This document shows positions 16,977-56,559 of a stretch of DNA of 60,779 nt, one piece after another (within the stretch, counting starts at the first letter, position 1; every line of letters begins with the position of its first letter). The stretch comes from Candidatus Zixiibacteriota bacterium. Its GTDB lineage: Bacteria > Zixibacteria > MSB-5A5 > GN15 > FEB-12. Location of the stretch: the NCBI GenBank assembly GCA_041742355.1, contig JBGSIV010000121.1:1-60779 (forward strand), in the 5' to 3' direction. The notes beneath the pieces are model-generated. The model was not told the DNA's origin. It saw only the letters and a list, made by a program, of their open reading frames with translations, and made no database searches. The position numbers and the translations under genes are program-made.

Positions 16977-17020
16977 CGCGGACAGCGGCCAGCCCTGTGT
17001 GCCTGATAGAATGCCTGTGA

Positions 17021-31855: not shown

Positions 31856-33325
31856 CTATCCCGACACAAGCCGCTTTGCCCCTTCCCAGCCGAAAAACGC
31901 CGATGCGCCTCCCACCCGACAGCTCCCGTCCCCATCGAGCACCAGCACCCGATCCGACAACGCCCGGATCACCTCCCCGTCGTGGCTGATCACCACCACG
32001 CCCGCGCCGCTCTCCCGCAGCTCTTTCGCCAGCCGAATGAACCGCCCCACCCCTTCCGGATCGAGGGCGCAGGTCGGCTCGTCGAACACCACCATATCCG
32101 GCCGCATCGACAACACCGCCGCAAACGCCAATCGCCGCTTCTCCCCGCCCGACAGACGGAACGGATCCCGAGTGGTGAACTCGGTCGGATCCAATCCGAC
32201 TAGCCGAAGCATCTGCTGCGTCTGCGTAATTGTCAGCGCCCGCCCGATATTGCGCGGACCGAATTCGATCTCCTGTGCGCAGGTCGGCAGAAAGAACTGG
32301 CGTTCCGGCTGCTGGAATATCGCCGTCACCCGCCCGAGAATATCTTCCAGATTCGCCGGCCCCCCCTCGGGTCCGAGATACAGCACCCTTCCCCGTGTCG
32401 GTTTGAGCAGGCGGCACAAGAGCAGGCCCAGCGTGCTCTTGCCCGATCCCGATGGCCCGACAACGCCGATCACCTCCCCGGCTTTCACGGATAGATCGAG
32501 TTCCGGCAACGTAAACCCGCTGCCCGGATACCCGACTGTCGCGCCGTCGAGTTCAATCTGGTGGATCTTCCGTTCGGTCGTTTTCAGGACATCCGCCTCG
32601 GCGGCCACCTCCCGCGCCTCTTGGTCGATATCATACCGCAGCCCGGTCTGTCTGCAGAACGCCTCGTCCGCAAAAATCTTCTCCGGCCGGCTGTCGGCCG
32701 CGATCTTTCCTTCGTGAAACACAATCAGCCGCGAGTACTCTTTCGCGACCTGCGGATACTGCGTGATATGGATTTGTATCATCGAGCGGTTGTTGTCCCG
32801 CAGCGCCGCCAGTTCCTCCCGCAGGGCGATCTTTCCCGCCTGGTCCAAGTACGAATCCGGCTCATCGAGCACCAGTACCTCCGGCTCGGCGATCATCACC
32901 GACGCCAGCGCCACCCGCTGCTTCTCACCTCCCGATAGTTCCGCCGTCAGACGCCGGCGCAGGTGGGTGATCCCGAACCTCTCCAGCGTGTCGGTGATCC
33001 GCTCTTCCATCTCGTCCAGCGGGGTCGCCAGGTTCTCCAGCGCGAACGCGATCTCTTTCTCGACCGTCACCGCGACCATCTGGTTGTCCGGATTTTGAAA
33101 CAGGATCCCGACGGGCGTGTCCCGCCCCTGCCTGTCGGTGACTTTGACCCACCCTTTGGTCGGCTCGTGCAGGTTCGCCGCCAGCCGTGCGAAGGTCGAT
33201 TTCCCCGACCCGTTGGCTCCCATCACCGCCACCGCCTCACCGGCGTTGACCGTAATGCTCACCTCGCGCAATGCGTCCGGAGCTTCCTCCGTATACCGGT
33301 ATGTGACGTCTTCGAATCTCAGCAT
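31856..33325 (-). CDS. ABC-type ATPase with two fused nucleotide-binding cassettes (CbiO/EcfA-like)
   Basis: Two Walker A sites (GANGSGKST; GPSGSGKST), two signatures (LSGGEKQRVALA; LSGGEKRRLAFA) and two Walker B sites (VLVLDEP; MVVFDEP). No membrane partner is adjacent. Confidence 0.8.
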   Translation of the reverse strand: MLRFEDVTYRYTEEAPDALREVSITVNAGEAVAVMGANGSGKSTFARLAANLHEPTKGWVKVTDRQGRDTPVGILFQNPDNQMVAVTVEKEIAFALENLATPLDEMEERITDTLERFGITHLRRRLTAELSGGEKQRVALASVMIAEPEVLVLDEPDSYLDQAGKIALREELAALRDNNRSMIQIHITQYPQVAKEYSRLIVFHEGKIAADSRPEKIFADEAFCRQTGLRYDIDQEAREVAAEADVLKTTERKIHQIELDGATVGYPGSGFTLPELDLSVKAGEVIGVVGPSGSGKSTLGLLLCRLLKPTRGRVLYLGPEGGPANLEDILGRVTAIFQQPERQFFLPTCAQEIEFGPRNIGRALTITQTQQMLRLVGLDPTEFTTRDPFRLSGGEKRRLAFAAVLSMRPDMVVFDEPTCALDPEGVGRFIRLAKELRESGAGVVVISHDGEVIRALSDRVLVLDGDGSCRVGGASAFFGWEGAKRLVSG

Positions 33326-33378
33326 AAAAAAGCCGATGCCCCAAAAAAGGGCATCGGCCCAAAATCACAAGTACAATG

Positions 33379-34857
33379 TTACTTCAGCGCGCAGACATCG
33401 AGGTTCCGCGCCGCCGAGGATTCATCGAGCCGACGCACCGGCGTGTCATGGGGCGCCGAGGTCACGATCTCCGGATTCTCCTCCACCTCGCGGGCGATCT
33501 GATGCATGATCGCGGCGAACCGGTCCAGCGTCTCCTTGCTCTCCGTCTCGGTCGGCTCGATCATGAGCGCTTCCGGCACGATGAGCGGGAAGTAGTTGGT
33601 CGGCGAGTGGATGCCGAAATCGAGCATCCGCTTGGACATATCCGAGGTGCGGACGCCTTTCTTCTTCTGGCGATTCCCCGAGGCCACGAATTCGTGCATG
33701 CAGTGTACGTCGTACGGCACCTCGAACACGTCCTTGATCAGCGCCTTGACATAGTTGGCGTTGATCACGGCGTTTTCGCTCGCCTCGCGCAAGCCCCGGC
33801 CGCCAAGCGTCTTGATATAGGCATAGGCGCGGACCTGGTTGGCGAAGTTGCCGTAGAACGAATGCACGCGGCCGACCGAATCCGGACGGTTGTAGTTCAT
33901 GAACAGCTTCCCGTCGTCGGCCTTCTCCAGCACCGGGAACGGCAGGAACTTGTCCAGCTCGGCCGTCACGCCCACTGCACCCGCACCCGGCCCGCCGCCG
34001 CCGTGCGGCGTCGAGAAGGTCTTGTGCAGGTTGAAGTGCATGATGTCGAAGCCGACATCCCCGGGGCGGAAGATTCCCATGTTGGCGTTAAGGTTCGCGC
34101 CGTCCATGTAGACGAGGCCGCCCTTGGCGTGCACGATATCGGCGATCTCCTTGATGTGCGTCTCGAAAATGCCGAGCGTGTTCGGGTTCGTCATCATGAT
34201 CCCGGCCACATCGTCGTCCATCACCGCGGCCACCGCCTCGGGTGGAATCACACCCTTCTCGTTCGCTTTCACCTGAATCGTCGAGTAGCCGACAATGGCC
34301 ACCGAAGCCGGGTTGGTGCCGTGCGCCGAGTCCGGGATAATGATCTTCGAGCGCTTCTTCCCCTTCTTCAGGTGGTATGCCCGCATGACCAGGAGCCCCA
34401 CGAACTCGCCGTGAGCGCCGGCCACCGGCTGCAGCGAAATCGACGGAAATCCGGAGACTTCCGACAGGTAGTTCTTCAGGTCCCACATGATCCGCAGGAT
34501 CCCGGGAGCCGAGCTGCACGGCGCGAGCGGGTGATGCTCTCGGAAATCGGGCATCGACGCGGCCACGTCGTTCAGCTTCGGATTGTACTTCATGGTGCAC
34601 GACCCCAGCGGGTAGAAATCCTTGTCGATGTGATGGTTCTTCACCGACAACCCGACAAAGTGGCGCATCGCTTCGCCCTCGGTCACCTCCGGCAGGGCCG
34701 CAGCTTCACTGCGGCGGAACTGCTGCGGCAGCGCCGACAGAATCTCGGTTTCACTCCGTCTGGTCGCAGGCAAAGTATACCCGCGCCGTCCGGCCACCGA
34801 CTTATCGTAAATCAACAATCGCTCGTCCATAGCATCCATCCGCACCGCCGGCGACAC
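33379..34857 (-). CDS. gcvPB: Glycine dehydrogenase (decarboxylating) subunit 2
   Basis: 492 aa with typical P-protein beta subunit sequence, including the PLP-lysine context NLHKTFSTPHGGGGPG. Confidence 0.95.
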   Translation of the reverse strand: MSPAVRMDAMDERLLIYDKSVAGRRGYTLPATRRSETEILSALPQQFRRSEAAALPEVTEGEAMRHFVGLSVKNHHIDKDFYPLGSCTMKYNPKLNDVAASMPDFREHHPLAPCSSAPGILRIMWDLKNYLSEVSGFPSISLQPVAGAHGEFVGLLVMRAYHLKKGKKRSKIIIPDSAHGTNPASVAIVGYSTIQVKANEKGVIPPEAVAAVMDDDVAGIMMTNPNTLGIFETHIKEIADIVHAKGGLVYMDGANLNANMGIFRPGDVGFDIMHFNLHKTFSTPHGGGGPGAGAVGVTAELDKFLPFPVLEKADDGKLFMNYNRPDSVGRVHSFYGNFANQVRAYAYIKTLGGRGLREASENAVINANYVKALIKDVFEVPYDVHCMHEFVASGNRQKKKGVRTSDMSKRMLDFGIHSPTNYFPLIVPEALMIEPTETESKETLDRFAAIMHQIAREVEENPEIVTSAPHDTPVRRLDESSAARNLDVCALK

Positions 34858-34867
34858 CGGCGACGCG

Positions 34868-35719
34868 TTATTTCGAGTCTTCTGTACTTTTGCCTGTCAA
34901 TTTTGCTATCTGTGTTCGGGCGTATTCGGCGTCCTCGGATTCCGGGTAGCTCTTGATGAACTGCTCGTACGCCGAAACCGCCGCGGTTGTATCCCCGGCC
35001 CGCTGGTGAATGACCGCCGTGTAGATGTCGGCCATCTCGGCGAGCGGGGTTCCAGCGAACTTCGCCTTCGCGGTCGCCATCGCCTCCAGCGCCCTCGGAT
35101 ACTCTTTCGCCCGCATGTACATGTCGCCGAGCGCGATGTGCGTCTCGCCGGCCAGCGAATCGTCCGCCGGGCCCATTTCGAGCACCTTTGCGTACCAGGT
35201 CTCGGCCTGGGCCGATTCACCTTTGTACTTGAACTTCTCGGCGATCGCAAACGCCGAATCCCGGTGCGGCGCGGCTTCGAACTTCGCGACCCGGTCTTCG
35301 AGCGTCCCGATCCCCTTCGAGAAATCGCGGAACGTCTGAATGTACCGGTCGGTCGAATCGAACCCGACCAGCCGATCGACTTCCGTGCCGTCCTTGCGCA
35401 CCAGCACCGAGGTCGGGAAACCCATCACTTTGTACCGCTGCCGCGTCAGGGTATCCTGTTCGGCATGGACCTTCACCAGCACCATCTCATCGGTGAAAAA
35501 TGCAATCGCTTTCGGATCAGTGAACACGACCGTGTCCAGCATCTTGCAGTACTTTCACCAATCGGTGTAGAAATCCAGAACAAAGTACTCCCGCTCGCCC
35601 GCCGCGGCCGCCGCCGAGTCCAAGCTCGAGAAGAACGGCGCCGACTGCGCGGCTTCGTCCGCCGCCAGAATCGGCAGCGCCAGGAGCACCAGCGCGATCG
35701 TCATAACCAGTTTTTTCAT
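34868..35719 (-). CDS. Exported thioredoxin-fold + TPR protein with an in-frame UGA (predicted selenocysteine, U55) in the redox motif W-U-K-Y-C
   Basis: My own translation from the ATG at 35719 (GAGAGG upstream): MKKLVMTIALVLLALPILAADEAAQSAPFFSSLDSAAAAAGEREYFVLDFYTDW-TGA-KYCKMLDTVVF... This runs in frame into track ORF 34868..35542. The TGA at 35555-35557 sits where Trx-fold proteins carry the first Cys of WCxxC. A hairpin with a GGUC loop lies 17 nt downstream. Confidence 0.7.
35522..35537 (-). promoter_or_regulatory. Candidate bacterial SECIS apical hairpin
   Basis: mRNA GGACAC-GGUC-GUGUUC: 6-bp stem (7 with the flanking U-A) and GGUC tetraloop, starting 18 nt after the UGA. As I recall it, the E. 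coli fdhF SECIS apical loop is also GGUC. Confidence 0.5.
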
Positions 35720-35756
35720 TTGCCTCTCGCTCTCGCCAAAGGTGTCTGTTCGTTTG

Positions 35757-36137
35757 TCACGGTTCCGGCTGGATCAGATCCTCGCCGAGCACCGCTTCGA
35801 GAATTATAAGCGCGTCCTCGCGGAACTCCCGCGGAACCATGATCACGTTTCCTACCGATCCGCTGTGGAACAGGCTGCCCGCATGGGTGGCGCCGCGCTG
35901 CGGTCCGCTCATGCCGGCTGAGAGAATCACCGACGGAATGTTGTTCGAATCCAATGACCCCTTGGCCATCTCCGACTTCATCTGCGACGCCACCTGGCCC
36001 ATCACGACCCAGCTGCGGTCGGGGCTCATCGCCGCCGCCCCGCGTTCGGGCATGGAATCGACCAGCGTGACATTGCAATCGGGGCAGACCATGACGCCCG
36101 TTTCAAATTCGTACCGGCACTGCGGACAGTAGGCCAC
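35757..36137 (-). CDS. Zinc-ribbon + DUF2007-like small protein, paralogue 2
   Basis: C4 ribbon CPQCRYEFETGVMVCPDC followed by a DUF2007-like alpha/beta module (..IPSVIL..VMVPREFREDALIILEAVLG). The GTG at 36137 (VAYCPQC) aligns with the MAYCPEC start of the upstream paralogue. An alternative ATG lies at 36158. Confidence 0.6.
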   Translation of the reverse strand: MAYCPQCRYEFETGVMVCPDCNVTLVDSMPERGAAAMSPDRSWVVMGQVASQMKSEMAKGSLDSNNIPSVILSAGMSGPQRGATHAGSLFHSGSVGNVIMVPREFREDALIILEAVLGEDLIQPEP

Positions 36138-36139
36138 TG

Positions 36140-36484
36140 CTATTCCTTTCGCTGCCACCGCTCGCCGAGCGTGGCCTCCAGAACTTCCATCGCTTCATCC
36201 TGATAGGTCGCCGGGACTGAGATTTCGAACGACGACGGTTTGGATTCGTAGATCGGATTCAGCGGCAACCCCACGTTGCCGAAAAACCCCGACTTGGAAA
36301 TCACCACCGCCGGTATGTTCAGCGACTTGAGCGTTTCACGCGCCAAATCGGCGAACGGCTTGCCGTCCACCATCCCCAGCACGACCCAGTCAGTCCGTTC
36401 GTCACTCATAACCGGATGTCCGCACACGTAGCACCGCTGCGGATCGCCTTTCAGTTCAATATTACATTCGGGACAGTACGCCAC
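36140..36484 (-). CDS. Zinc-ribbon + DUF2007-like small protein, paralogue 1
   Basis: MAYCPECNIELKGDPQRCYVCGHPV (C4 ribbon), then WVVLGMV..LARETLKSLNIPAVVIS..ISVPATYQDEAMEVLEATLG. Its start overlaps the gcvPA 3' end by 23 nt. Confidence 0.6.
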   Translation of the reverse strand: MAYCPECNIELKGDPQRCYVCGHPVMSDERTDWVVLGMVDGKPFADLARETLKSLNIPAVVISKSGFFGNVGLPLNPIYESKPSSFEISVPATYQDEAMEVLEATLGERWQRKE

Positions 36485-37817
36485 TCGTGGACAACTCCTT
36501 GAGCCCCGACACCAGCCGCGCGACTTCCTCGTCGGTGCGCTTCTCGGTCAGCGCCACGATCAGGCAGTCATCGAGGCCACGGTACCAGCGCCCGGCCGCC
36601 ACTCCCGGCAGAATGCTCCGCTCGACCATCGCCAGGATGATCTGCTGCGCCGGTTTGGGCGTCCGGATCGCGAACTCGCGCACGAACGGCCTGTTCCAGT
36701 ACAGCTCGAATCCGTCGAGCGCACCGATTGCTTTCGCGGCCTGCTGCGCTTTTTCCATCGACAGCAGCGCCACCTGCCGCAGCCCGGTCTTTCCGAGCAG
36801 CGTCATGTACACCGCCGCCGTAGTCGCACACAGCGCCTGGTTCGTGCAGATGTTCGAGGTCGCCTTCTCGCGGCGGATATGCTGTTCGCGCGTCTGCAGC
36901 ACCAGCACGAACCCCGGCTTGCCGTCCACATCCGTGGTCCGGCCGGCGATTCGTCCCGGCATGCTGCGCACGAGATCCTTTTTCACCGCGAAAAACCCGA
37001 GGAGCGGGCCGCCGAACGACACCGACATTCCCAGGGGCTGGCCCTCACCGATCGCGATATCGGCCCCGACCTCGCCCGGCGTCTTGAGTACCGCCTGCGC
37101 GATCGGGTCTACCGCCATGACCAGCTTGCCGCCGACCTTGTGGACCATCGCCGCCACCGGCTCCGTCTCCTCGAGTAACCCGAAGAAATTCGGCTGCGAC
37201 ACGATCACACCGGCCGTGTTCTCGTCGAGCAGATCCTCCAGACGGTTCAGGTCCGTCACCCCGTCGGCCATGGGCGCAGTCACGATCTCGATATCGAGAC
37301 CCGACAGGTACGTCCGCACCACGTCGCGGTAGGAGGGATTGAGCGTTTCGGCCAGAACGATCCGGTTGCGGTTCGTCACCTTCAGCGCCAGCATGGCGGC
37401 CTCGGCCGCCGCCGTCGCGCCGTCGTACATCGACGCGTTGGCGACATCCATCCCGGTCAGCCGGCAGATGTGCGTCTGAAATTCGTAAATCGCCTGAAGC
37501 GTTCCCTGCGCCACTTCCGCCTGGTAGGGGGTGTAGGCCGTCATGAACTCCGGCCGGCTGATGATCGTATTCACCGCCGACGGGATCCAGTGGTCGTACA
37601 CGCCGCCTCCGGCGAAACCCACCAGCCCTTCGCGGTTTTCCCGCGAAAGCTCCTGGATCTCGCGCAGCAGCTCCATCTCGGACAGCGACGGTATATTCAG
37701 CTCCCGCTTGAGCCGCAGATGGGCCGGAATACCGTCCAGCAAATCCTCGAACTTGTCAACCCCGATGCGCTTGAGCATCGCCCGACGATCGTCGTCGGTG
37801 TTCGGTACGTATGACAT
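36462..37817 (-). CDS. gcvPA: Glycine dehydrogenase (decarboxylating) subunit 1
   Basis: 451 aa with typical P-protein alpha subunit sequence (MSYVPNTDDDRRAMLKRIGV.., YTPYQAEVAQGTLQ). Confidence 0.95.
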   Translation of the reverse strand: MSYVPNTDDDRRAMLKRIGVDKFEDLLDGIPAHLRLKRELNIPSLSEMELLREIQELSRENREGLVGFAGGGVYDHWIPSAVNTIISRPEFMTAYTPYQAEVAQGTLQAIYEFQTHICRLTGMDVANASMYDGATAAAEAAMLALKVTNRNRIVLAETLNPSYRDVVRTYLSGLDIEIVTAPMADGVTDLNRLEDLLDENTAGVIVSQPNFFGLLEETEPVAAMVHKVGGKLVMAVDPIAQAVLKTPGEVGADIAIGEGQPLGMSVSFGGPLLGFFAVKKDLVRSMPGRIAGRTTDVDGKPGFVLVLQTREQHIRREKATSNICTNQALCATTAAVYMTLLGKTGLRQVALLSMEKAQQAAKAIGALDGFELYWNRPFVREFAIRTPKPAQQIILAMVERSILPGVAAGRWYRGLDDCLIVALTEKRTDEEVARLVSGLKELSTSGVLSRM

Positions 37818-38053
37818 ACTCTGACTGCTTCCGATTCTTCCTGTGTTTACCTCCCCCAGGTGATTGAGCGGCCCGAGGGTCTTCTCCCCCGACGTCGCCA
37901 GGAACTCGCCGCCGGGAGGATCTCTATCGTAACACCACTACCCGGCGCAAGTGCCTCCGCCGGGTCGCATTCTTTCGGTACCGATGTCATGCGGCCGACT
38001 CATGGGCCGGCCGCTCACTGCTCCGTTCGGGAACGGCAGAACCACAATCCGCC

Positions 38054-38449
38054 TTACGCTTCTTCCAGCAGGCGCTTGTAGTTCCCCTGGTCCAATAGCG
38101 CAGCCACTTGCGCCGCATCCGACACCTCAACCTTGATCATCCAGCCGTCGCCGTACGGATCCCGGTTGATGATCATCGGATCATCTTCCAGCGCGCCGTT
38201 GATCTCGACAACCTTGCCCGATACCGGCGCATACAGCTCCGAGACGGCCTTGACCGCTTCGATCGTGCCGAACGCCTGCATCTGCGCGACATGGTCGCCC
38301 ACCTTCGGGAGCTCGACAAAAACGATGTCCCCGAGTTCCCCTTGGGCGTATTCCGTTATCCCGATCGTGGCCGTCTTACCGTCCAGCCGAATCCATTCAT
38401 GCTCCTTGGTGTAGCGCAGTTCTGCGGGAATGTTCACGGGATCCTCCAC
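38054..38449 (-). CDS. gcvH: Glycine cleavage system H protein
   Basis: 131 aa. YTKEHEWIR and the lipoyl-lysine context IEAVKAVSELYAPVSG. Confidence 0.95.
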   Translation of the reverse strand: MEDPVNIPAELRYTKEHEWIRLDGKTATIGITEYAQGELGDIVFVELPKVGDHVAQMQAFGTIEAVKAVSELYAPVSGKVVEINGALEDDPMIINRDPYGDGWMIKVEVSDAAQVAALLDQGNYKRLLEEA

Positions 38450-38472
38450 TATACACGTACTAGGTTAAATCG

Positions 38473-39990
38473 TTACTCGGCCTTCTTATCTGACACCGAG
38501 GCCACCGCCCCGGCGATTTCTTCTGCGCTGGCCGGAGTCCCCTCGCCCCCCCGCAACAGGGTCAGGCTCTTGGGCGACTCCCCCTCCGCTAAAGGGAGGG
38601 CCCCCGGCTCCTTCGCGGGTCGAAGCCGCGATTCTATGAAGTTGATGTCGTACTTGCCGGCCACAAAATCCGGATGCTGGAAAATTTCGCGCTGGAAGCC
38701 CACGGTCGTCGGAATCCCCTCGACGATGAACTCATCGAGCGCCCGGCGCATCCGGATCACGGCCTGCTCCCGGGTCCGCGCCCGCACGATCAGTTTCGCG
38801 ATCATCGAATCGTAAAACGGCGGAATCACATACCCCGTATACACCGCCCGATCCACCCGTATCCCCAGGCCACCGGGAATATGCAGGCCCGTGATCGTCC
38901 CCGGTCCCGGGCGGAAATCCTTGTCGGGATCCTCCGCGTTGATCCGGCACTCGATCACCGCCCACTTCGGCTTGATGTCTTCCTGCTTGTATTCGAGCTT
39001 CTCGCCCAGCGCCACCCGCAGCTGGTCCTGCAGCAGGTCGACCTCGTAGGCTTCCTCCGTCACCGGGTGTTCCACCTGGATGCGGGTGTTCATTTCCATG
39101 AAGTAGTAGTTGTGGTTGTCGTCCACGAGGAATTCCATCGTCCCCGCCCCGCGGTATCCCACCTCGGCCGCGCCTTTGACCGCCGCATCTCCCATGCGCT
39201 TGCGCAGCTCGGGCGTCATCAGCGGCGACGGCGTCTCTTCGATCAGCTTCTGGTGGCGGCGCTGGATCGAACAGTCCCGCTCCCCGAAATGGATGTAATG
39301 GCCGTGAGTGTCCCCCATCAGCTGGATTTCAACATGGTGCGGGTTAATGACGAGTTTTTCGAGGTACAGATCCGGGTTGTTGAACGCATTGCCCGCTTCG
39401 GCCGACGCGATGTGAAAGCCGCGCTCCAGCTCGGCAATGTCCCGGCACGCCCGCATGCCTTTGCCTCCGCCGCCGGCCACCGCTTTGAGAATCACCGGAT
39501 AGCCGATTTCCTCGGCGATCGCGGCCGCGTCCCGAAACGTCGGCACGATCCCGTCCGACCCCGGAATGCACGGCACCCCGGCCCGCTTCATCAGATCCTT
39601 GGCCCGGACCTTGTCCCCCAACTGGCGAATCTGCTCCGGCGTCGGCCCGATGAAGGTAAGTCCGCAGGACTCGCAGATCTCGGCAAAATCGGCGTTCTCG
39701 GCCAGGAAACCGTAGCCGGGGTGAATCGCTCCCGCGTTGGTCACCTCGGCCGCCGCAATGATGTGCTTGAAATTCAGATACGACTGCCGCGCCGGCGCCG
39801 GACCGATACAGACGTCCTCGTCGGCAAAACGGACATGCAGGGCATCGCGGTCCGCCTCGCTGTAGACAGCCACCGTTTTGAGCCCCAACTCACGGCACGC
39901 GCGAATTATGCGCAGGGCGATTTCGCCCCGATTGGCAATGAGTACCTTTTCGAACAAGTCGTGTCCTTTCGTCTCGGATGTTTGGGCCAC
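38473..39990 (-). CDS. accC: Acetyl-CoA carboxylase biotin carboxylase subunit (with ~55-aa C-terminal extension)
   Basis: ATP-grasp biotin carboxylase throughout ([40 protein letters not shown]). Only 23 nt upstream of gcvH. Confidence 0.95.
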
Positions 39991-50630: not shown

Positions 50631-51926
50631 TCAACGAGCTGTATCTTGGCTTCCCGGATCTTGGGCCTGCTGCAAGAGCACAGCAATATCTTTGAAGCCC
50701 TTCTCCATAGCAACCTCCATAGCCGTTCGGTTGTCTGTCGAGCGAATGCCGGCATCTGCCCCTTTAGCCAAGAGCAGTTCAACTACCTCGAGGTGGCCGT
50801 GGTACACTGCTGTCAAGAGGGGAGTGAGACCATAAGCGCCCGGCGTGCGAGCAGCATTGACATCGGCTCCAACTTCCAGCAACAACCGGGCGATCTCCAC
50901 ATGACCCTCTTCGCATGCTGGATGCAGCGGTGTGCCACCATCCGTCGTGGCAGCATTAACATCGGCGCCCGCGGACAGCAACAACTTGACAATGGTCGTC
51001 TGGCCTTCCAACGAGGCAGCCCACAGGGGAGTGAAACCGATCGTCCCACACCGGGCGTCGGCATCAGCCCCGGCTGTTAGCAGCGTCTTGACTACTTCGA
51101 CATGCCCGTCTGCAGCCGCTACTGACAGCGGGGTCCAACCCGATGATCCCGCTGCCTCAATATCCGCCTTCGCTCCTACCAGCAGTTGTGCAACTCCGGC
51201 ATGACCGCCTTTGGACGCAGCCCAGAGGGGGCTCTTGCCTACGTTATCTCCAGTGTCGACATCCGCATGTGCAGCCAAAAGCAATTTGACCGTTTCGGTG
51301 TGGCCAAATGACGACGCCGTCAGCAGTGGGCTTCTTCCAGAGCTATCTCTGGAGTTGACATCAGCACCTGCTGCCAAGAGCACAGAAACAATCTCGATGT
51401 GACCGAGGCTCGATGCTATCCAGAGCGGCGTGTTCCCCTCCTCAAAGGCCGCATCGACAGTGGCACCTGCGGCAATTAGCTCCCTGACTATATCTATATT
51501 CCCTTTCTTCGATGCTCTATAAAGTGCTGTCTGCCCACCGAGGGCTACAGCGTTGACATTCGCGCCCGCTGTGAGCAATAGCTTGACTACCTCCAAATGG
51601 CCTTCTGAGGATGCAGTCCAGAGGGGTGTGAGGCTATCCGAAATGCGTGCCGCGTTTACGTTCGCACCGCCATCTATGAGTAACTTTACGATATCCTTGT
51701 CGCCATCCTGCGAAACCATTAGCAGAAGCGTGACACCGTCCCCATAGGTGGCATTCACATCGAACCCTGCCTTCGCCAACCTCTTTTTGATATCACCCGG
51801 ACTAACTCCATCAGGGCTTTTCAGAATGACCCTAACCTCAACTTCCGCGTCATCCTGTGCTCTCACAGTCCCGGCAATACTGGCGAGCAACGTTAGAGCA
51901 ACTATAAGACTGATGCACTTCATCAT
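50631..51926 (-). CDS. Secreted ankyrin-repeat protein (~12 repeats)
   Basis: Signal peptide MMKCISLIVALTLLASIAGTVRA. Repeated 33-aa units of the form G.TPL..A...GH.E.VKLLL.AGADVNA. Confidence 0.85.
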   Translation of the reverse strand: MMKCISLIVALTLLASIAGTVRAQDDAEVEVRVILKSPDGVSPGDIKKRLAKAGFDVNATYGDGVTLLLMVSQDGDKDIVKLLIDGGANVNAARISDSLTPLWTASSEGHLEVVKLLLTAGANVNAVALGGQTALYRASKKGNIDIVRELIAAGATVDAAFEEGNTPLWIASSLGHIEIVSVLLAAGADVNSRDSSGRSPLLTASSFGHTETVKLLLAAHADVDTGDNVGKSPLWAASKGGHAGVAQLLVGAKADIEAAGSSGWTPLSVAAADGHVEVVKTLLTAGADADARCGTIGFTPLWAASLEGQTTIVKLLLSAGADVNAATTDGGTPLHPACEEGHVEIARLLLEVGADVNAARTPGAYGLTPLLTAVYHGHLEVVELLLAKGADAGIRSTDNRTAMEVAMEKGFKDIAVLLQQAQDPGSQDTAR

Positions 51927-53433: not shown

Positions 53434-54699
53434 TCACGGATACACCACCGTCACCCCGCGATTGCGCAACGTCCACACCTGAATATCGATCGCTGTCTGC
53501 GACAGCGGATTCCCCTCCAGATACACGACATCACCGGAGTCAATCCCCGGATTGTTCACCAGCGGCATAATATCCGAGATCTGGTTATTGGTCAGTCGCA
53601 ACTCGCGGAGCCCGGTCATCCAGCCCAGCCCGGCTATGGTCGTGATCTGGTTCTGCATCAGGTTAAGCGACTCCACCATGTACAGCGACCGGAGAGAATC
53701 CGCGTTGGTGATATGATTGAACGCCAGTCCCACCCGCTGCGGACGTTTCAAGTGCGCCATGAAACTGATATCCGCGAGATCCATCTCGTCAAATCCGACT
53801 TCGCTGAGAAAATACAGCCCGTAAAGCGGGGAGAAGTCCGTCACATCCGTACGCCACAAAATCAACTGCTGCAGCGAATCGACCGCCGCCAGCGGACTGA
53901 TATCCGTCACCGGATTATCTCCCACCTGTACCTGATGGAGTCGCTTCATGCCCGCCAGCGGGCCAAGATCGCTGATCTGGTTCCCGTTCATGTACAAGTC
54001 CGCAAGTTGCTCCAAATCGGCCAGCGGCGCCAGGCTGACCACGTTGTTTCCCGGAAGATTCAGCATGTGCAGCGAGATGCAGCGATTCAACCCGCTCAGG
54101 TCCGCGATCCCCGCGTGTGGCGCGGACAACTCCGTGATCGTATCGACGTCCGAAGAGAGCAGGTCCCCGTTTGGCTTGCCCAGATGTTCCCGCACGATCC
54201 GTTCGAGAACCGTGTCCGCAAATTCCACCTTCTGCAGCGCCGCGCAATGCGCCGACACACAGTTCGACACGGCGCTCCAGTTGCCGTGGTCATCCTCGGC
54301 CTTGAGCGCGAAATAGTAGTGGCCGTCCGGCTCACAGCCACGCACCACCCAGACCTGGACCTGCCCCTCTCCCAGCGGATCCGGCACCTCGGCAATCTGC
54401 TGTGCGGCTGCGAAATTCTGCGCCGTGAGGCTGTCGGACGAAATGCGCAGGTCATAGGCCACTATCGGCCCGCCGGTGCTGTCGTCGCGACGATCCTGCG
54501 GCGTCTGCCATTGCAGCGTGACTGTCTCGGAGGTTGCTCCCAGAACCACCAGGTTAGTCACCGTCGTTGGCGGCGTGGTGTCGGTTTCCTCGTCATCAAC
54601 ATCGGTGGACTTGGAGCAGGCCGGCCCAAGAAGCGCAATCGCCACCGCCAGAGTGAGCCCGGCGACGGCACGAAGATCCCTGATGAGTTTGTTACCCAT
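53434..54699 (-). CDS. Exported FN3 + leucine-rich-repeat (internalin-like) protein
   Basis: Signal peptide with Cys (LAVAIALLGPAC). An FN3-like segment (PPTTVTNLVVLGATSETVTLQWQTP), then about 10 LRR units of ~22 aa (L..L.L..N.I.D...L..L). Confidence 0.8.
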   Translation of the reverse strand: MGNKLIRDLRAVAGLTLAVAIALLGPACSKSTDVDDEETDTTPPTTVTNLVVLGATSETVTLQWQTPQDRRDDSTGGPIVAYDLRISSDSLTAQNFAAAQQIAEVPDPLGEGQVQVWVVRGCEPDGHYYFALKAEDDHGNWSAVSNCVSAHCAALQKVEFADTVLERIVREHLGKPNGDLLSSDVDTITELSAPHAGIADLSGLNRCISLHMLNLPGNNVVSLAPLADLEQLADLYMNGNQISDLGPLAGMKRLHQVQVGDNPVTDISPLAAVDSLQQLILWRTDVTDFSPLYGLYFLSEVGFDEMDLADISFMAHLKRPQRVGLAFNHITNADSLRSLYMVESLNLMQNQITTIAGLGWMTGLRELRLTNNQISDIMPLVNNPGIDSGDVVYLEGNPLSQTAIDIQVWTLRNRGVTVVYP

Positions 54700-55506: not shown

Positions 55507-56559
55507 CTACTTCACCAGCAGCATCTTCTTCGTCGCTTCGTAATCCCCCGCCCGGAATCTATAGAGGTAGACGCCGGTCGACACCGTCCGCCCCGTTTCG
55601 TCCATTCCATCCCACTCGACCTGGTACGTCCCGGCCGCTTTCACTTCATTCACCAGCGTTTGGACCCGCTGTCCGGCGACATTGAACACCTCGATCGTCA
55701 CGGTCGACCGCGAGGGCAGGCCGTACTCGATCGCTGTCGACGGATTGAACGGGTTGGGGAAGTTCTGATGCAGGTCGAACCCGAACGGGAGCGCCGCGCT
55801 TTCGTCGTCGCCAACCCCCATCGGTTCATCCCGCACACAGCGGACCGACCCGGCGTAATCCAGCGCATAGCCGCCCCGCCCGACCGAGGTCAGGTTGCAG
55901 GAGATGTCCCGCGCCCAAGCATACCCCGGAGTGGTTCTCTCCGTCGCCGTCCAGAAGAAAGCCGACATGCCGAATTCTGTGAAAAGCGGTCGGTTATCGA
56001 GGACTCCACCCGGTATCGCCGCAAAGCCGAATTCGTCCGTGGCGCCCTCATTGGGGCAGGCCCAGTGAATGGAGCCGACTTCTTTCAGTCTGGCGCCGAT
56101 CAGGTAACCCCCGCGATTTCCCATGCCGTCGACCACTTCGATCGGCATTCCCAGGAACACTTCCAGCACCTTCCAATCGTCGTCGGTCGACACATGCCAT
56201 CCCTCCGGCGCGATGCCCCGCGGATCGACCGTAGCGTGCCAGTTGTACATCAAGCCGTAAGTTGCCACATTGTTCGTATCCGCTTCAGGGGCGCAGCACT
56301 GGCCGACCGTGACTCCCGTCCAGTTGGCGCTGTCGGGCACGAAATACGGGATCGGGTCGCCGTTGTTGTAGTGACCGACTTTCAGGTTCTCCGCCATCCA
56401 GACCTGCGTGCCGATCACGACTGTCTGGTAGGTGTGGCCGTCGATATCGGTGACTGTGCCGGCGGGTGCGGACGCCGCGATCATCATAATGAGGGCAGCG
56501 GGTAGGGCGATAGTGAGGACAAGGTGCTTCATGGTGTCTCTCCGGGGTTGCGTGGACAT
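55507..56559 (-). CDS. FISUMP-domain protein with T9SS C-terminal sorting domain
   Basis: TDIDGHTYQTVVIGTQVWMAENLKV..YGLMYNWHA..IAPEGWHVSTDDDW..FGFAAIPGG..FWTATE..SVRCVRD is the Fibrobacter succinogenes major paralogous domain pattern. C-terminus NFPNPFNPSTAIEYGLP..VTIEVFNVAGQRV..GVYLYRFRAGDYEATKKMLLVK is a T9SS type A CTD. Confidence 0.8.
   Translation of the reverse strand: MSTQPRRDTMKHLVLTIALPAALIMMIAASAPAGTVTDIDGHTYQTVVIGTQVWMAENLKVGHYNNGDPIPYFVPDSANWTGVTVGQCCAPEADTNNVATYGLMYNWHATVDPRGIAPEGWHVSTDDDWKVLEVFLGMPIEVVDGMGNRGGYLIGARLKEVGSIHWACPNEGATDEFGFAAIPGGVLDNRPLFTEFGMSAFFWTATERTTPGYAWARDISCNLTSVGRGGYALDYAGSVRCVRDEPMGVGDDESAALPFGFDLHQNFPNPFNPSTAIEYGLPSRSTVTIEVFNVAGQRVQTLVNEVKAAGTYQVEWDGMDETGRTVSTGVYLYRFRAGDYEATKKMLLVK

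Follow-up and report, generated by a model that had tools for sequence, protein, structure and literature searches.

Proteins with a thioredoxin (Trx) fold and a UxxC motif, in which U is selenocysteine (Sec), represent the commonest class of bacterial selenoprotein. In known members Sec takes the place of the N-terminal Cys of a CxxC motif, the gene carries an in-frame UGA and a stem-loop within the open reading frame (ORF), and homologues with Cys exist. Two other described systems bear on the protein considered here. The gamma domain of DsbD is a periplasmic Trx fold with a CxxC motif, and CnoX (YbbN) joins an N-terminal Trx domain to a helical tetratricopeptide repeat (TPR) domain, the E. 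coli protein being without a canonical CxxC. For the RNA signal the reference is the selenocysteine insertion sequence (SECIS) of E. coli fdhF, a hairpin within the coding sequence (CDS), shortly past the UGA, with a GGUC apical tetraloop in which G23 and U24 are the determinants for SelB (PMC8659212). Here we describe positions 34868-35719 of a contig, analyzed within a window of 60,779 nt (60.8 kb), that is, the whole stretch of DNA under study; all gene coordinates refer to the minus strand. Comparative sequence evidence indicates that this segment is very probably a single gene for a Sec-containing exported oxidoreductase composed of a Trx and a TPR domain, and that its internal UGA at 35555-35557 is almost certainly decoded as Sec.

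An in-frame UGA at a catalytic cysteine position

Between the ATG at 35719 and the TAA at 34868 the frame holds a sole in-frame stop, the TGA at 35555-35557, and its translation runs ...EYFVLDFYTDW(stop)KYCKMLDTVVF.... Mechanical ORF calling cuts this frame in two, yielding 35555..35719 (54 aa) and 34868..35542 (224 aa). Retranslation reproduced what the first-pass annotation had described: the frame, the TGA and its coordinates, its place at residue 55 of a 283-aa protein, and the splitting of the gene by the ORF track.

A search over 5.8 billion proteins yielded 88 homologues that fall into two length classes. About 43 are of full length (281-320 aa) and all of them show CxxC where the TGA aligns (WCxxC in 42, with a T before CxxC in the remaining one); homology with these Cys relatives covers the whole 34868..35719 frame. 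Homologues are thus not encoded as two separate genes, an arrangement that, had it been found, would by the first-pass annotation have counted against Sec. About 45 short homologues (204-241 aa) start 3-12 residues or more past the motif, and their starts vary (MLDTVVF, LDTVVF, MF.., VF.. or a later Met), some being without an ATG after the TGA. This is the pattern expected when gene callers halt at the TGA and restart at the first usable codon. The short database entries carry names such as 'TPR repeat protein' or 'hypothetical protein'.

Species-representative genomes supplied the DNA of 53 related loci, with 3-7 kb on either side of each. Nearly all are labelled as Zixibacteria, GN15, Calditrichota or 'uncultured Ignavibacteriales' metagenome-assembled genomes (MAGs). 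Note that loci L001, L002, L005, L011, L013 and others are titled 'uncultured Ignavibacteriales bacterium' and L044 'Candidatus Acidoferrum sp.', labels that look unreliable given shared synteny and 40-50% protein identity. The aligned codon was readable in 47 loci and is TGA in 35 and TGC or TGT in 12, so that position 55 carries either TGA or Cys across the family; the window adds a 36th TGA form. The flanking peptide is kept in all 47 on both sides of the codon (FYTDW-U/C-xWCK-LDTVVF). At this catalytic CxxC position TGA swaps solely with Cys codons, never with those for Trp or Gly, and all TGA forms have an uninterrupted frame of about 53-90 codons upstream, encoding a hydrophobic signal sequence or a lipobox. 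The locus thus exhibits the pairing of Sec and Cys codons, the conserved peptides flanking the UGA and the TGA orthologues in other genomes by which a bacterial selenoprotein gene is recognized.

TGA is also an ordinary stop codon here. Of the 34 large ORFs in the window it ends 11, among them the gene directly upstream, and it terminates this same Trx-TPR gene in several Sec-form orthologues. UGA is therefore not reassigned genome-wide, and a change of genetic code was rejected from this stop-codon usage. The window was also scanned with a filter that requires a TGA, a hairpin with a GGUY loop and long open frames on both sides, and with a separate filter for codon bias. The TGA at 35555-35557 was the sole convincing site in the 60.8 kb to pass the hairpin and open-frame filter. 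Other selenoprotein genes in the window were discarded as candidates, the remaining hits being antisense to real genes and without a redox motif. The sole other TGA to pass the filter, at 17018-17020 on the plus strand, is followed after 5 nt by UCCGGUC-GGUC-GACCGGA; no redox motif accompanies it, and it looks fortuitous.

The hairpin downstream of the UGA

A 6-bp hairpin, GGACAC-GGUC-GUGUUC, had been proposed 17 nt past the UGA. It is present at 35522-35537 and belongs to the minimum free energy (MFE) fold; an extra U-A pair extends the stem to 7 bp, which then begins 16 nt past the UGA. The published model of bacterial SECIS (bSECIS) elements specifies a loop of 3-9 nt, a stem of 4-16 bp, a G in the first two loop positions, a UGA-to-loop distance of 16-37 nt and a free energy (dG) of <= -7.5 kcal/mol (PMC13188914). 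The window hairpin conforms to each of these limits, with a loop of 4 nt, a stem of 7 bp, GG, a distance of 23 nt and a dG of -7.5 kcal/mol. The first-pass annotation had described the apex of the fdhF SECIS as a GGUC tetraloop, and this proved correct: a 48-nt fdhF segment (UGACACGGCCCAUCGGUUGCAGGUCUGCACC...) is 100% identical to fdhF in the records listed, is present at >=95% identity in 5420 of the 5426 genomes of E. coli, and folds with a GGUC apical loop closed by the upper stem. Unlike fdhF, the locus has no conserved lower stem around the UGA. A long-range lower stem pairing UGGUGAAAG with UUUUUCACC is seen in the MFE fold of the locus and was rejected, as it is absent from the RNAalifold consensus of orthologues.

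The segment GAYACGGUCGURUU, which lies over codons D-T-V-V, is invariant in 36 of 36 TGA forms. Covariation was tested on a specified 8-pair structure (alignment A2, columns 26-32 with 37-43, with GGUC between them). Columns 27 and 42 pair as GC in 25 sequences, CG in 8 and UA in 1, with none unpaired, and columns 30 and 39 display one double change from C-G to U-A. The covariation score was reached by none of 500 shuffles, and when the 3' partner is shifted 1-3 columns out of register, pairing drops from 89% to 25-50%. Furthermore, the RNAalifold consensus of 84-nt segments from the 36 sequences contains the 7-bp hairpin and no other structure. Codon choice beneath the hairpin is frozen: Thr is ACG in 35/35, the first Val GTC in 35/35 and the second GTG in 34/35, with third-position entropies of 0, 0 and 0.19 bits, against 1.2-2.0 bits at other conserved four-fold-degenerate codons of the same gene. 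The comparative signal indicates that constraint at the T-V-V synonymous sites acts on the RNA rather than on the protein. Overall, the data on the codon, on covariation and on synonymous sites place the hairpin far beyond chance, and the stem-loop proves to be conserved as RNA in orthologues, beyond what the protein code requires; the lack of a conserved stem-loop in orthologues was among the outcomes that the first-pass annotation had named as refuting.

The hairpin differs between the two forms of the gene. Its mean dG is -7.9 kcal/mol in Sec forms vs -3.1 kcal/mol in Cys forms (Mann-Whitney p 1e-5, a value that ignores phylogeny). The exact ACGGUCGUG core is retained in 4 of 12 Cys forms (L017, L018, L025 and L043), which we regard as carrying a 'fossil SECIS'. 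In 7 of the 12 next to nothing of the hairpin remains (dG no stronger than -2.3 kcal/mol), and six of these seven have amino-acid changes at DT-VV (DTLV, DTEV, DTNL, DTGT). The remaining Cys form, L038, is intermediate, with DTVV kept and a dG of -3.5 kcal/mol. Strong RNA-level selection on the hairpin is, from these comparisons, limited to orthologues that contain the UGA.

In an unbootstrapped neighbor-joining tree of 47 sequences the Cys forms were polyphyletic, branching from within the Sec forms at about eight points. This nesting indicates that Sec is ancestral in the Zixibacteria-type family and that Sec-to-Cys replacement was repeated, perhaps seven or eight times on this tree, with decay of the hairpin afterwards. 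The most recent conversion is that of L017 (Cys), the sister of L023 (Sec), the N-termini of the two being nearly identical; in the older Cys clades, L004/5/7 and L012/21, the hairpin is gone. More distant relatives all have Cys, and a single origin of the Sec form, from an ancestor with Cys, is probable.

Protein architecture, genomic setting and possible function

In 47 of 48 orthologues the TGA/TGY codon is preceded by a hydrophobic N-terminal stretch. About 16 of the 48 possess a lipobox Cys (15 by script, L028 by eye), and the remainder resemble signal-peptidase-I substrates. The Cys form L043 (1-441) has no signal peptide and presents a Thr/Gly/Asn-rich, repeat-like sequence from the contig start; its N-terminal repeat, ..NVTLYAKW..YDDNGSTGG.., occurs twice, and it may be a different fusion or a misassembly.

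With the stop read as Cys, Pfam Thioredoxin (PF00085) matches residues 42-127, spanning the TGA (E 4.8e-11, 43 bits, cutoff 23.5). Thioredoxin_2 and Thioredoxin_7 match too (PF13098 with 39.1 bits, cutoff 27), and several TPR families of Pfam match residues ~160-275. These matches, together with the signal peptide or lipobox of the orthologues, uphold the earlier description of an exported Trx-fold/TPR protein. Invariant in the alignment are the cis-Pro P102 of G-F/Y-P-T, the GIGTL linker, and KYKY and DS-L of the TPR part. Structure was modelled with AlphaFold2 on P0003, which is the closest among the full-length Cys homologues (49% identity) and shares the WCKYCKM motif. The model (predicted local distance difference test, pLDDT, 94.4; predicted template-modelling score, pTM, 0.85) consists of a signal helix, a Trx fold at ~30-136 with topology beta-alpha-beta-alpha-beta-beta-alpha, and eight TPR-type helices after 142. 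The hallmarks of a Trx-fold thiol:disulfide oxidoreductase are all found, namely the domain, C/UxxC at helix 1 and the cis-Pro loop. In a Foldseek comparison of this model with the PDB, the Trx domain matched DsbD-gamma best, followed by thioredoxins, and the helical part matched BamD. NCBIfam contributed matches to DsbD (PRK00293; E 4.4e-13, profile positions 463-571, 48.7 bits, cutoff 330) and to the selenoprotein TsoB, through its DsbD-like domain alone (E 3e-13, 48.6 bits, cutoff 805). NCBIfam holds no dedicated model for the Trx-TPR family, and none of its selenoprotein models, among which TsoB scored best, matched at its cutoff. The features of the locus are collected in Table 1.

Table 1. 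Features of the putative selenoprotein gene and of the gene cluster around it
Feature	Position	Strand	Remarks
Putative selenoprotein CDS, complete	34868..35719	minus	283 codons + TAA; start ATG 35717-35719; TAA 34868-34870
N-terminal signal peptide MKKLVMTIALVLLALPILAA	35660..35719	minus	cleavage site judged by eye
Thioredoxin-fold domain, DsbD-gamma-like	35315..35638	minus	~residues 28-135; cis-Pro loop G-F-P-T, P102; PF00085, PF13098, PF13899
UGA, predicted to be read as Sec	35555..35557	minus	residue 55/283; first, nucleophilic position in redox motif W-U-K-Y-C
Codon TGC of putative resolving Cys58 of UxxC	35546..35548	minus	Cys invariant in 36/36 Sec forms, TGC or TGT
Predicted bacterial SECIS core	35521..35538	minus	7-bp stem UGGACAC/GUGUUCA closed by GGUC; overlaps codons L-D-T-V-V-F
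GGUC apical loop	35528..35531	minus	nt 27-30, U of UGA = 1; presumed SelB contact; invariant in 36/36 TGA forms
C-terminal all-helical TPR domain	34895..35302	minus	~residues 140-275; invariant GIGTL linker joins it to the Trx domain
accC	38473-39990	minus	cluster member
gcvH	38054-38449	minus	upstream; Pfam GCV_H E 7e-46
gcvPA	36462-37817	minus	upstream; NCBIfam NF001696, 611 bits
Two paralogous zinc-ribbon/DUF2007-like genes	36140-36484, ~35757-36158	minus	second ends in TGA; kept in related loci
gcvPB	33379..34857	minus	directly downstream, 11 nt past stop; NCBIfam NF003346, 706 bits
ECF-type ABC ATPase	31856-33325	minus	cluster member

The gene belongs to a co-directional cluster (31856-39990) with the order accC-gcvH-gcvPA-ZnR-ZnR-TrxTPR-gcvPB-ECF-type ABC ATPase, ZnR denoting the zinc-ribbon genes. 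This order is the same in related loci wherever the contig reaches, with one or two zinc-ribbon genes between gcvPA and gcvPB. The gcv position is also held in a 319-aa all-Cys subgroup and in a homologue ~32-35% identical, and the link is absent in more distant homologues, two of which lie beside a secDF cluster and one beside dnaE. We consider the gcv position an operon arrangement inherited from long ago, its bearing on function being uncertain; its maintenance between gcvPA and gcvPB down to ~32% identity may reflect co-regulation with glycine cleavage. A mechanism built on glycine cleavage was set aside, since the synteny is lost in distant homologues and the protein is exported. The two distant Cys homologues near secDF, L056 7001-7861 (WCPHC) and L058 7001-7885 (WCPPC), are directly upstream of tgt-yajC-secD-secF, a context that would fit a role in the folding of envelope proteins. 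These two loci also lie near exbB-exbD, and one is named Aminicenantes.

The zinc-ribbon paralogues of ~115-130 aa combine an N-terminal CPxC...CxxC ribbon with a C-terminal part that weakly resembles DUF2007. The ribbon gives a weak match to 'zinc ribbon-containing (seleno)protein DG' of NCBIfam (27.5 and 19.9 bits, cutoff 130). Sec in these genes was considered and rejected: they and their orthologues are all-Cys, without an in-frame TGA in the aligned protein, and stops occur at gene boundaries only. At two related loci, tblastn revealed single in-frame stops within an otherwise intact gcvPA (L034 ~903-2255) and gcvPB (L048 ~703-2154); these align with Val and Tyr, not Cys, and faulty assembly or pseudogene formation is a likelier cause than recoding. 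Elsewhere on the minus strand of the window is a run of genes for repeat proteins, comprising a 431-aa ankyrin protein (50631-51926; Ank_2 E 1e-83), a 421-aa leucine-rich repeat (LRR) protein (53434-54699) and a Fib_succ_major + FlgD-Ig protein (55507-56559). Ankyrin and LRR proteins of such kind are unusual for a MAG of a free-living bacterium.

The following mechanism can be proposed. On the approach of the ribosome, SelB carrying Sec-tRNA(Sec) would bind the hairpin and deliver Sec to the UGA in competition with release factor 2 (RF2), as at E. coli fdhF. The signal peptide would then export the product to the periplasm, where in about a third of orthologues it would remain anchored to the membrane as a lipoprotein. 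There, the DsbD-gamma-like Trx domain, packed against the TPR domain, would carry out thiol-disulfide exchange on proteins of the cell envelope. The selenolate of Sec55 would attack a substrate disulfide or sulfenate, Cys58 would resolve the mixed selenenylsulfide, and a DsbD/CcdA-type electron carrier in the membrane would recycle the resulting Se-S form. The TPR domain may hold an unfolded client or a partner.

That the product acts as an exported thiol-disulfide oxidoreductase is likely from its domains and motif. As for direction, reductase or isomerase activity and oxidase activity stand about level by analogy with known proteins. The former is slightly favored because of the similarity to DsbD-gamma and because Sec mainly aids nucleophilic attack, and the CPHC motif of the distant relatives beside secDF points to an oxidase instead. 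A more speculative proposal, to which we give a small chance, is that the family represents an extracytoplasmic Se-dependent 'chaperedoxin', a membrane-tethered or periplasmic holdase-oxidoreductase that arose independently as a periplasmic counterpart of CnoX. In such a protein the TPR domain would capture newly translocated or oxidatively damaged envelope proteins and the Sec-Cys center would repair or isomerize their thiols.

Alternative readings and comparison with known systems

A number of observations weigh against decoding of the UGA as Sec or against the role proposed for the product. All of the genomes are MAGs. No tRNA gene of any kind, tRNA-Sec included, was detected in the 60.8-kb window, and selA, selB and selD were not found among its annotated ORFs, ten larger Pfam-scanned ORFs included. 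The hairpin is short and marginally stable, its dG lying exactly at the published threshold. Among TGA-form orthologues dG extends from -6.4 to -12.4 kcal/mol, several hairpins falling at -6.4 to -6.9 and thus weaker than the threshold, and the fold of an 81-nt segment around the window hairpin is unremarkable vs shuffles (z = -1.2). Compared with fdhF, the stem starts 16 nt instead of 11 nt past the UGA, which puts the GU at nt 28-29 instead of nt 23-24, 5 nt further, and the bulged U of fdhF is absent. Rfam gave no match for the whole window at gathering thresholds or for 35440-35620 at E <= 10; bacterial SECIS elements are poorly represented in Rfam. The covariation, entropy and energy statistics across orthologues ignore shared ancestry, the tree is without bootstrap values, and function, redox direction and electron donor are read from fold and context only.

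Were the TGA a genuine stop, the locus would encode an exported peptide of 54 residues (35719-35555) and a separate, headless Trx/TPR protein of 224 residues from the ATG at 35542, which is what the mechanical ORF calls and the annotation of ~45 database entries imply. This is highly implausible, as the downstream start varies (M-L-D, L-D, M-F, V-F or later) and some orthologues offer no ATG after the TGA, as Trx homology crosses the TGA to meet a Cys in full-length relatives, and as we see no rationale for a Trx without active site and signal peptide being kept in 35 genomes beside a conserved hairpin. An error in sequencing or assembly, or recent pseudogenization through mutation of TGC or TGT, would take a single base change, and these are metagenome assemblies in which stray in-frame stops do occur in two neighbor genes at other loci; its probability is nevertheless negligible, because the same codon is TGA in 35 independently assembled species-level genomes, purifying selection operates on both halves of the gene, and the hairpin is conserved in TGA forms only. 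The recurrence of the TGA in those 35 genomes, the conserved flanks and the upstream signal sequences together lead us to set aside error, pseudogene and 'two genes' alike. Somewhat less remote, though still quite improbable, is readthrough of the UGA without Sec, whether by genome-wide reassignment to Trp or Gly or by near-cognate insertion of Trp or Cys stimulated by the hairpin. Downstream hairpins can stimulate readthrough in general, but the use of TGA as a stop in 11 of the 34 large window ORFs and at the end of this gene in several orthologues, the alternation with Cys alone at the catalytic CxxC (the classic Sec/Cys signature), and a GGUC loop identical to that recognized by SelB in E. 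coli fdhF all argue against it.

A different question is whether the product is a true chaperedoxin of the CnoX/YbbN family, acting mainly as a holdase rather than as a redox catalyst. The two share the order of an N-terminal Trx and a helical TPR domain (3qou, 3qdn) and a similar total length, and E. coli YbbN (3qou) and its Salmonella homologue are the top Foldseek matches by E-value (1.6e-08). Superposition does not bear out homology: the template-modelling (TM) score is 0.31, the root-mean-square deviation 21.9 A and the identity 14%, so that the domain arrangement differs. Furthermore, DsbD-gamma is a closer match for the Trx domain, the protein has U/CxxC and carries an export signal, with its location judged from sequence, whereas CnoX is cytoplasmic and works with GroEL/DnaK. 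YbbN is absent from the best 60 PDB sequence matches, no CnoX-type model is among the NCBIfam matches, and retention of a Sec active site across the whole phylum argues for central redox chemistry. Membership in that family is therefore unlikely, and the likeness is an analogy of architecture. The label 'CnoX-like' given in the first-pass annotation stands for the Trx-TPR domain order and fails for the family assignment.

The single-gene, Sec-containing reading has consequences for annotation and for comparative work. About half of the family's database entries are, on this reading, headless fragments without signal peptide and catalytic center, and the family would need a selenoprotein-aware annotation model such as NCBI has for other families. 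It implies a Sec-decoding trait in Zixibacteria-type bacteria, and its members could serve as a natural series for the loss of Sec and the decay of a coding-embedded RNA signal. Understanding of Sec decoding itself is unchanged.

Among characterized proteins, the Trx domain finds its closest structural counterpart in the gamma domain of DsbD (1uc7, 2fwe, 1vrs), with which it shares the periplasmic CxxC Trx fold at a TM score, normalized by target, of 0.70-0.73 and 27-29% identity. Here this domain stands alone, outside any fusion to transmembrane beta and alpha domains, in a protein composed of signal peptide, Trx and TPR parts only; it has an aromatic second x (C-x-W/Y-C) and a predicted Sec at the first position. 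With the known Trx-fold UxxC selenoproteins the locus has in common the predicted Sec in place of the N-terminal Cys, the UGA with its in-ORF stem-loop and the existence of Cys homologues. It differs from them in its C-terminal TPR domain, its signal peptide or lipobox and its fixed position between gcvPA and gcvPB. A review of Trx-fold selenoproteins includes no member with a TPR domain and makes no mention of TPR (tetratricopeptide) or of Zixibacteria, and in the literature on selenocysteine in Zixibacteria and on Trx-TPR selenoproteins we found no description of it. Judged from sequence, this is a new family within a well-known class of bacterial selenoproteins, and it would add an exported Trx-TPR architecture to those known among UxxC proteins.

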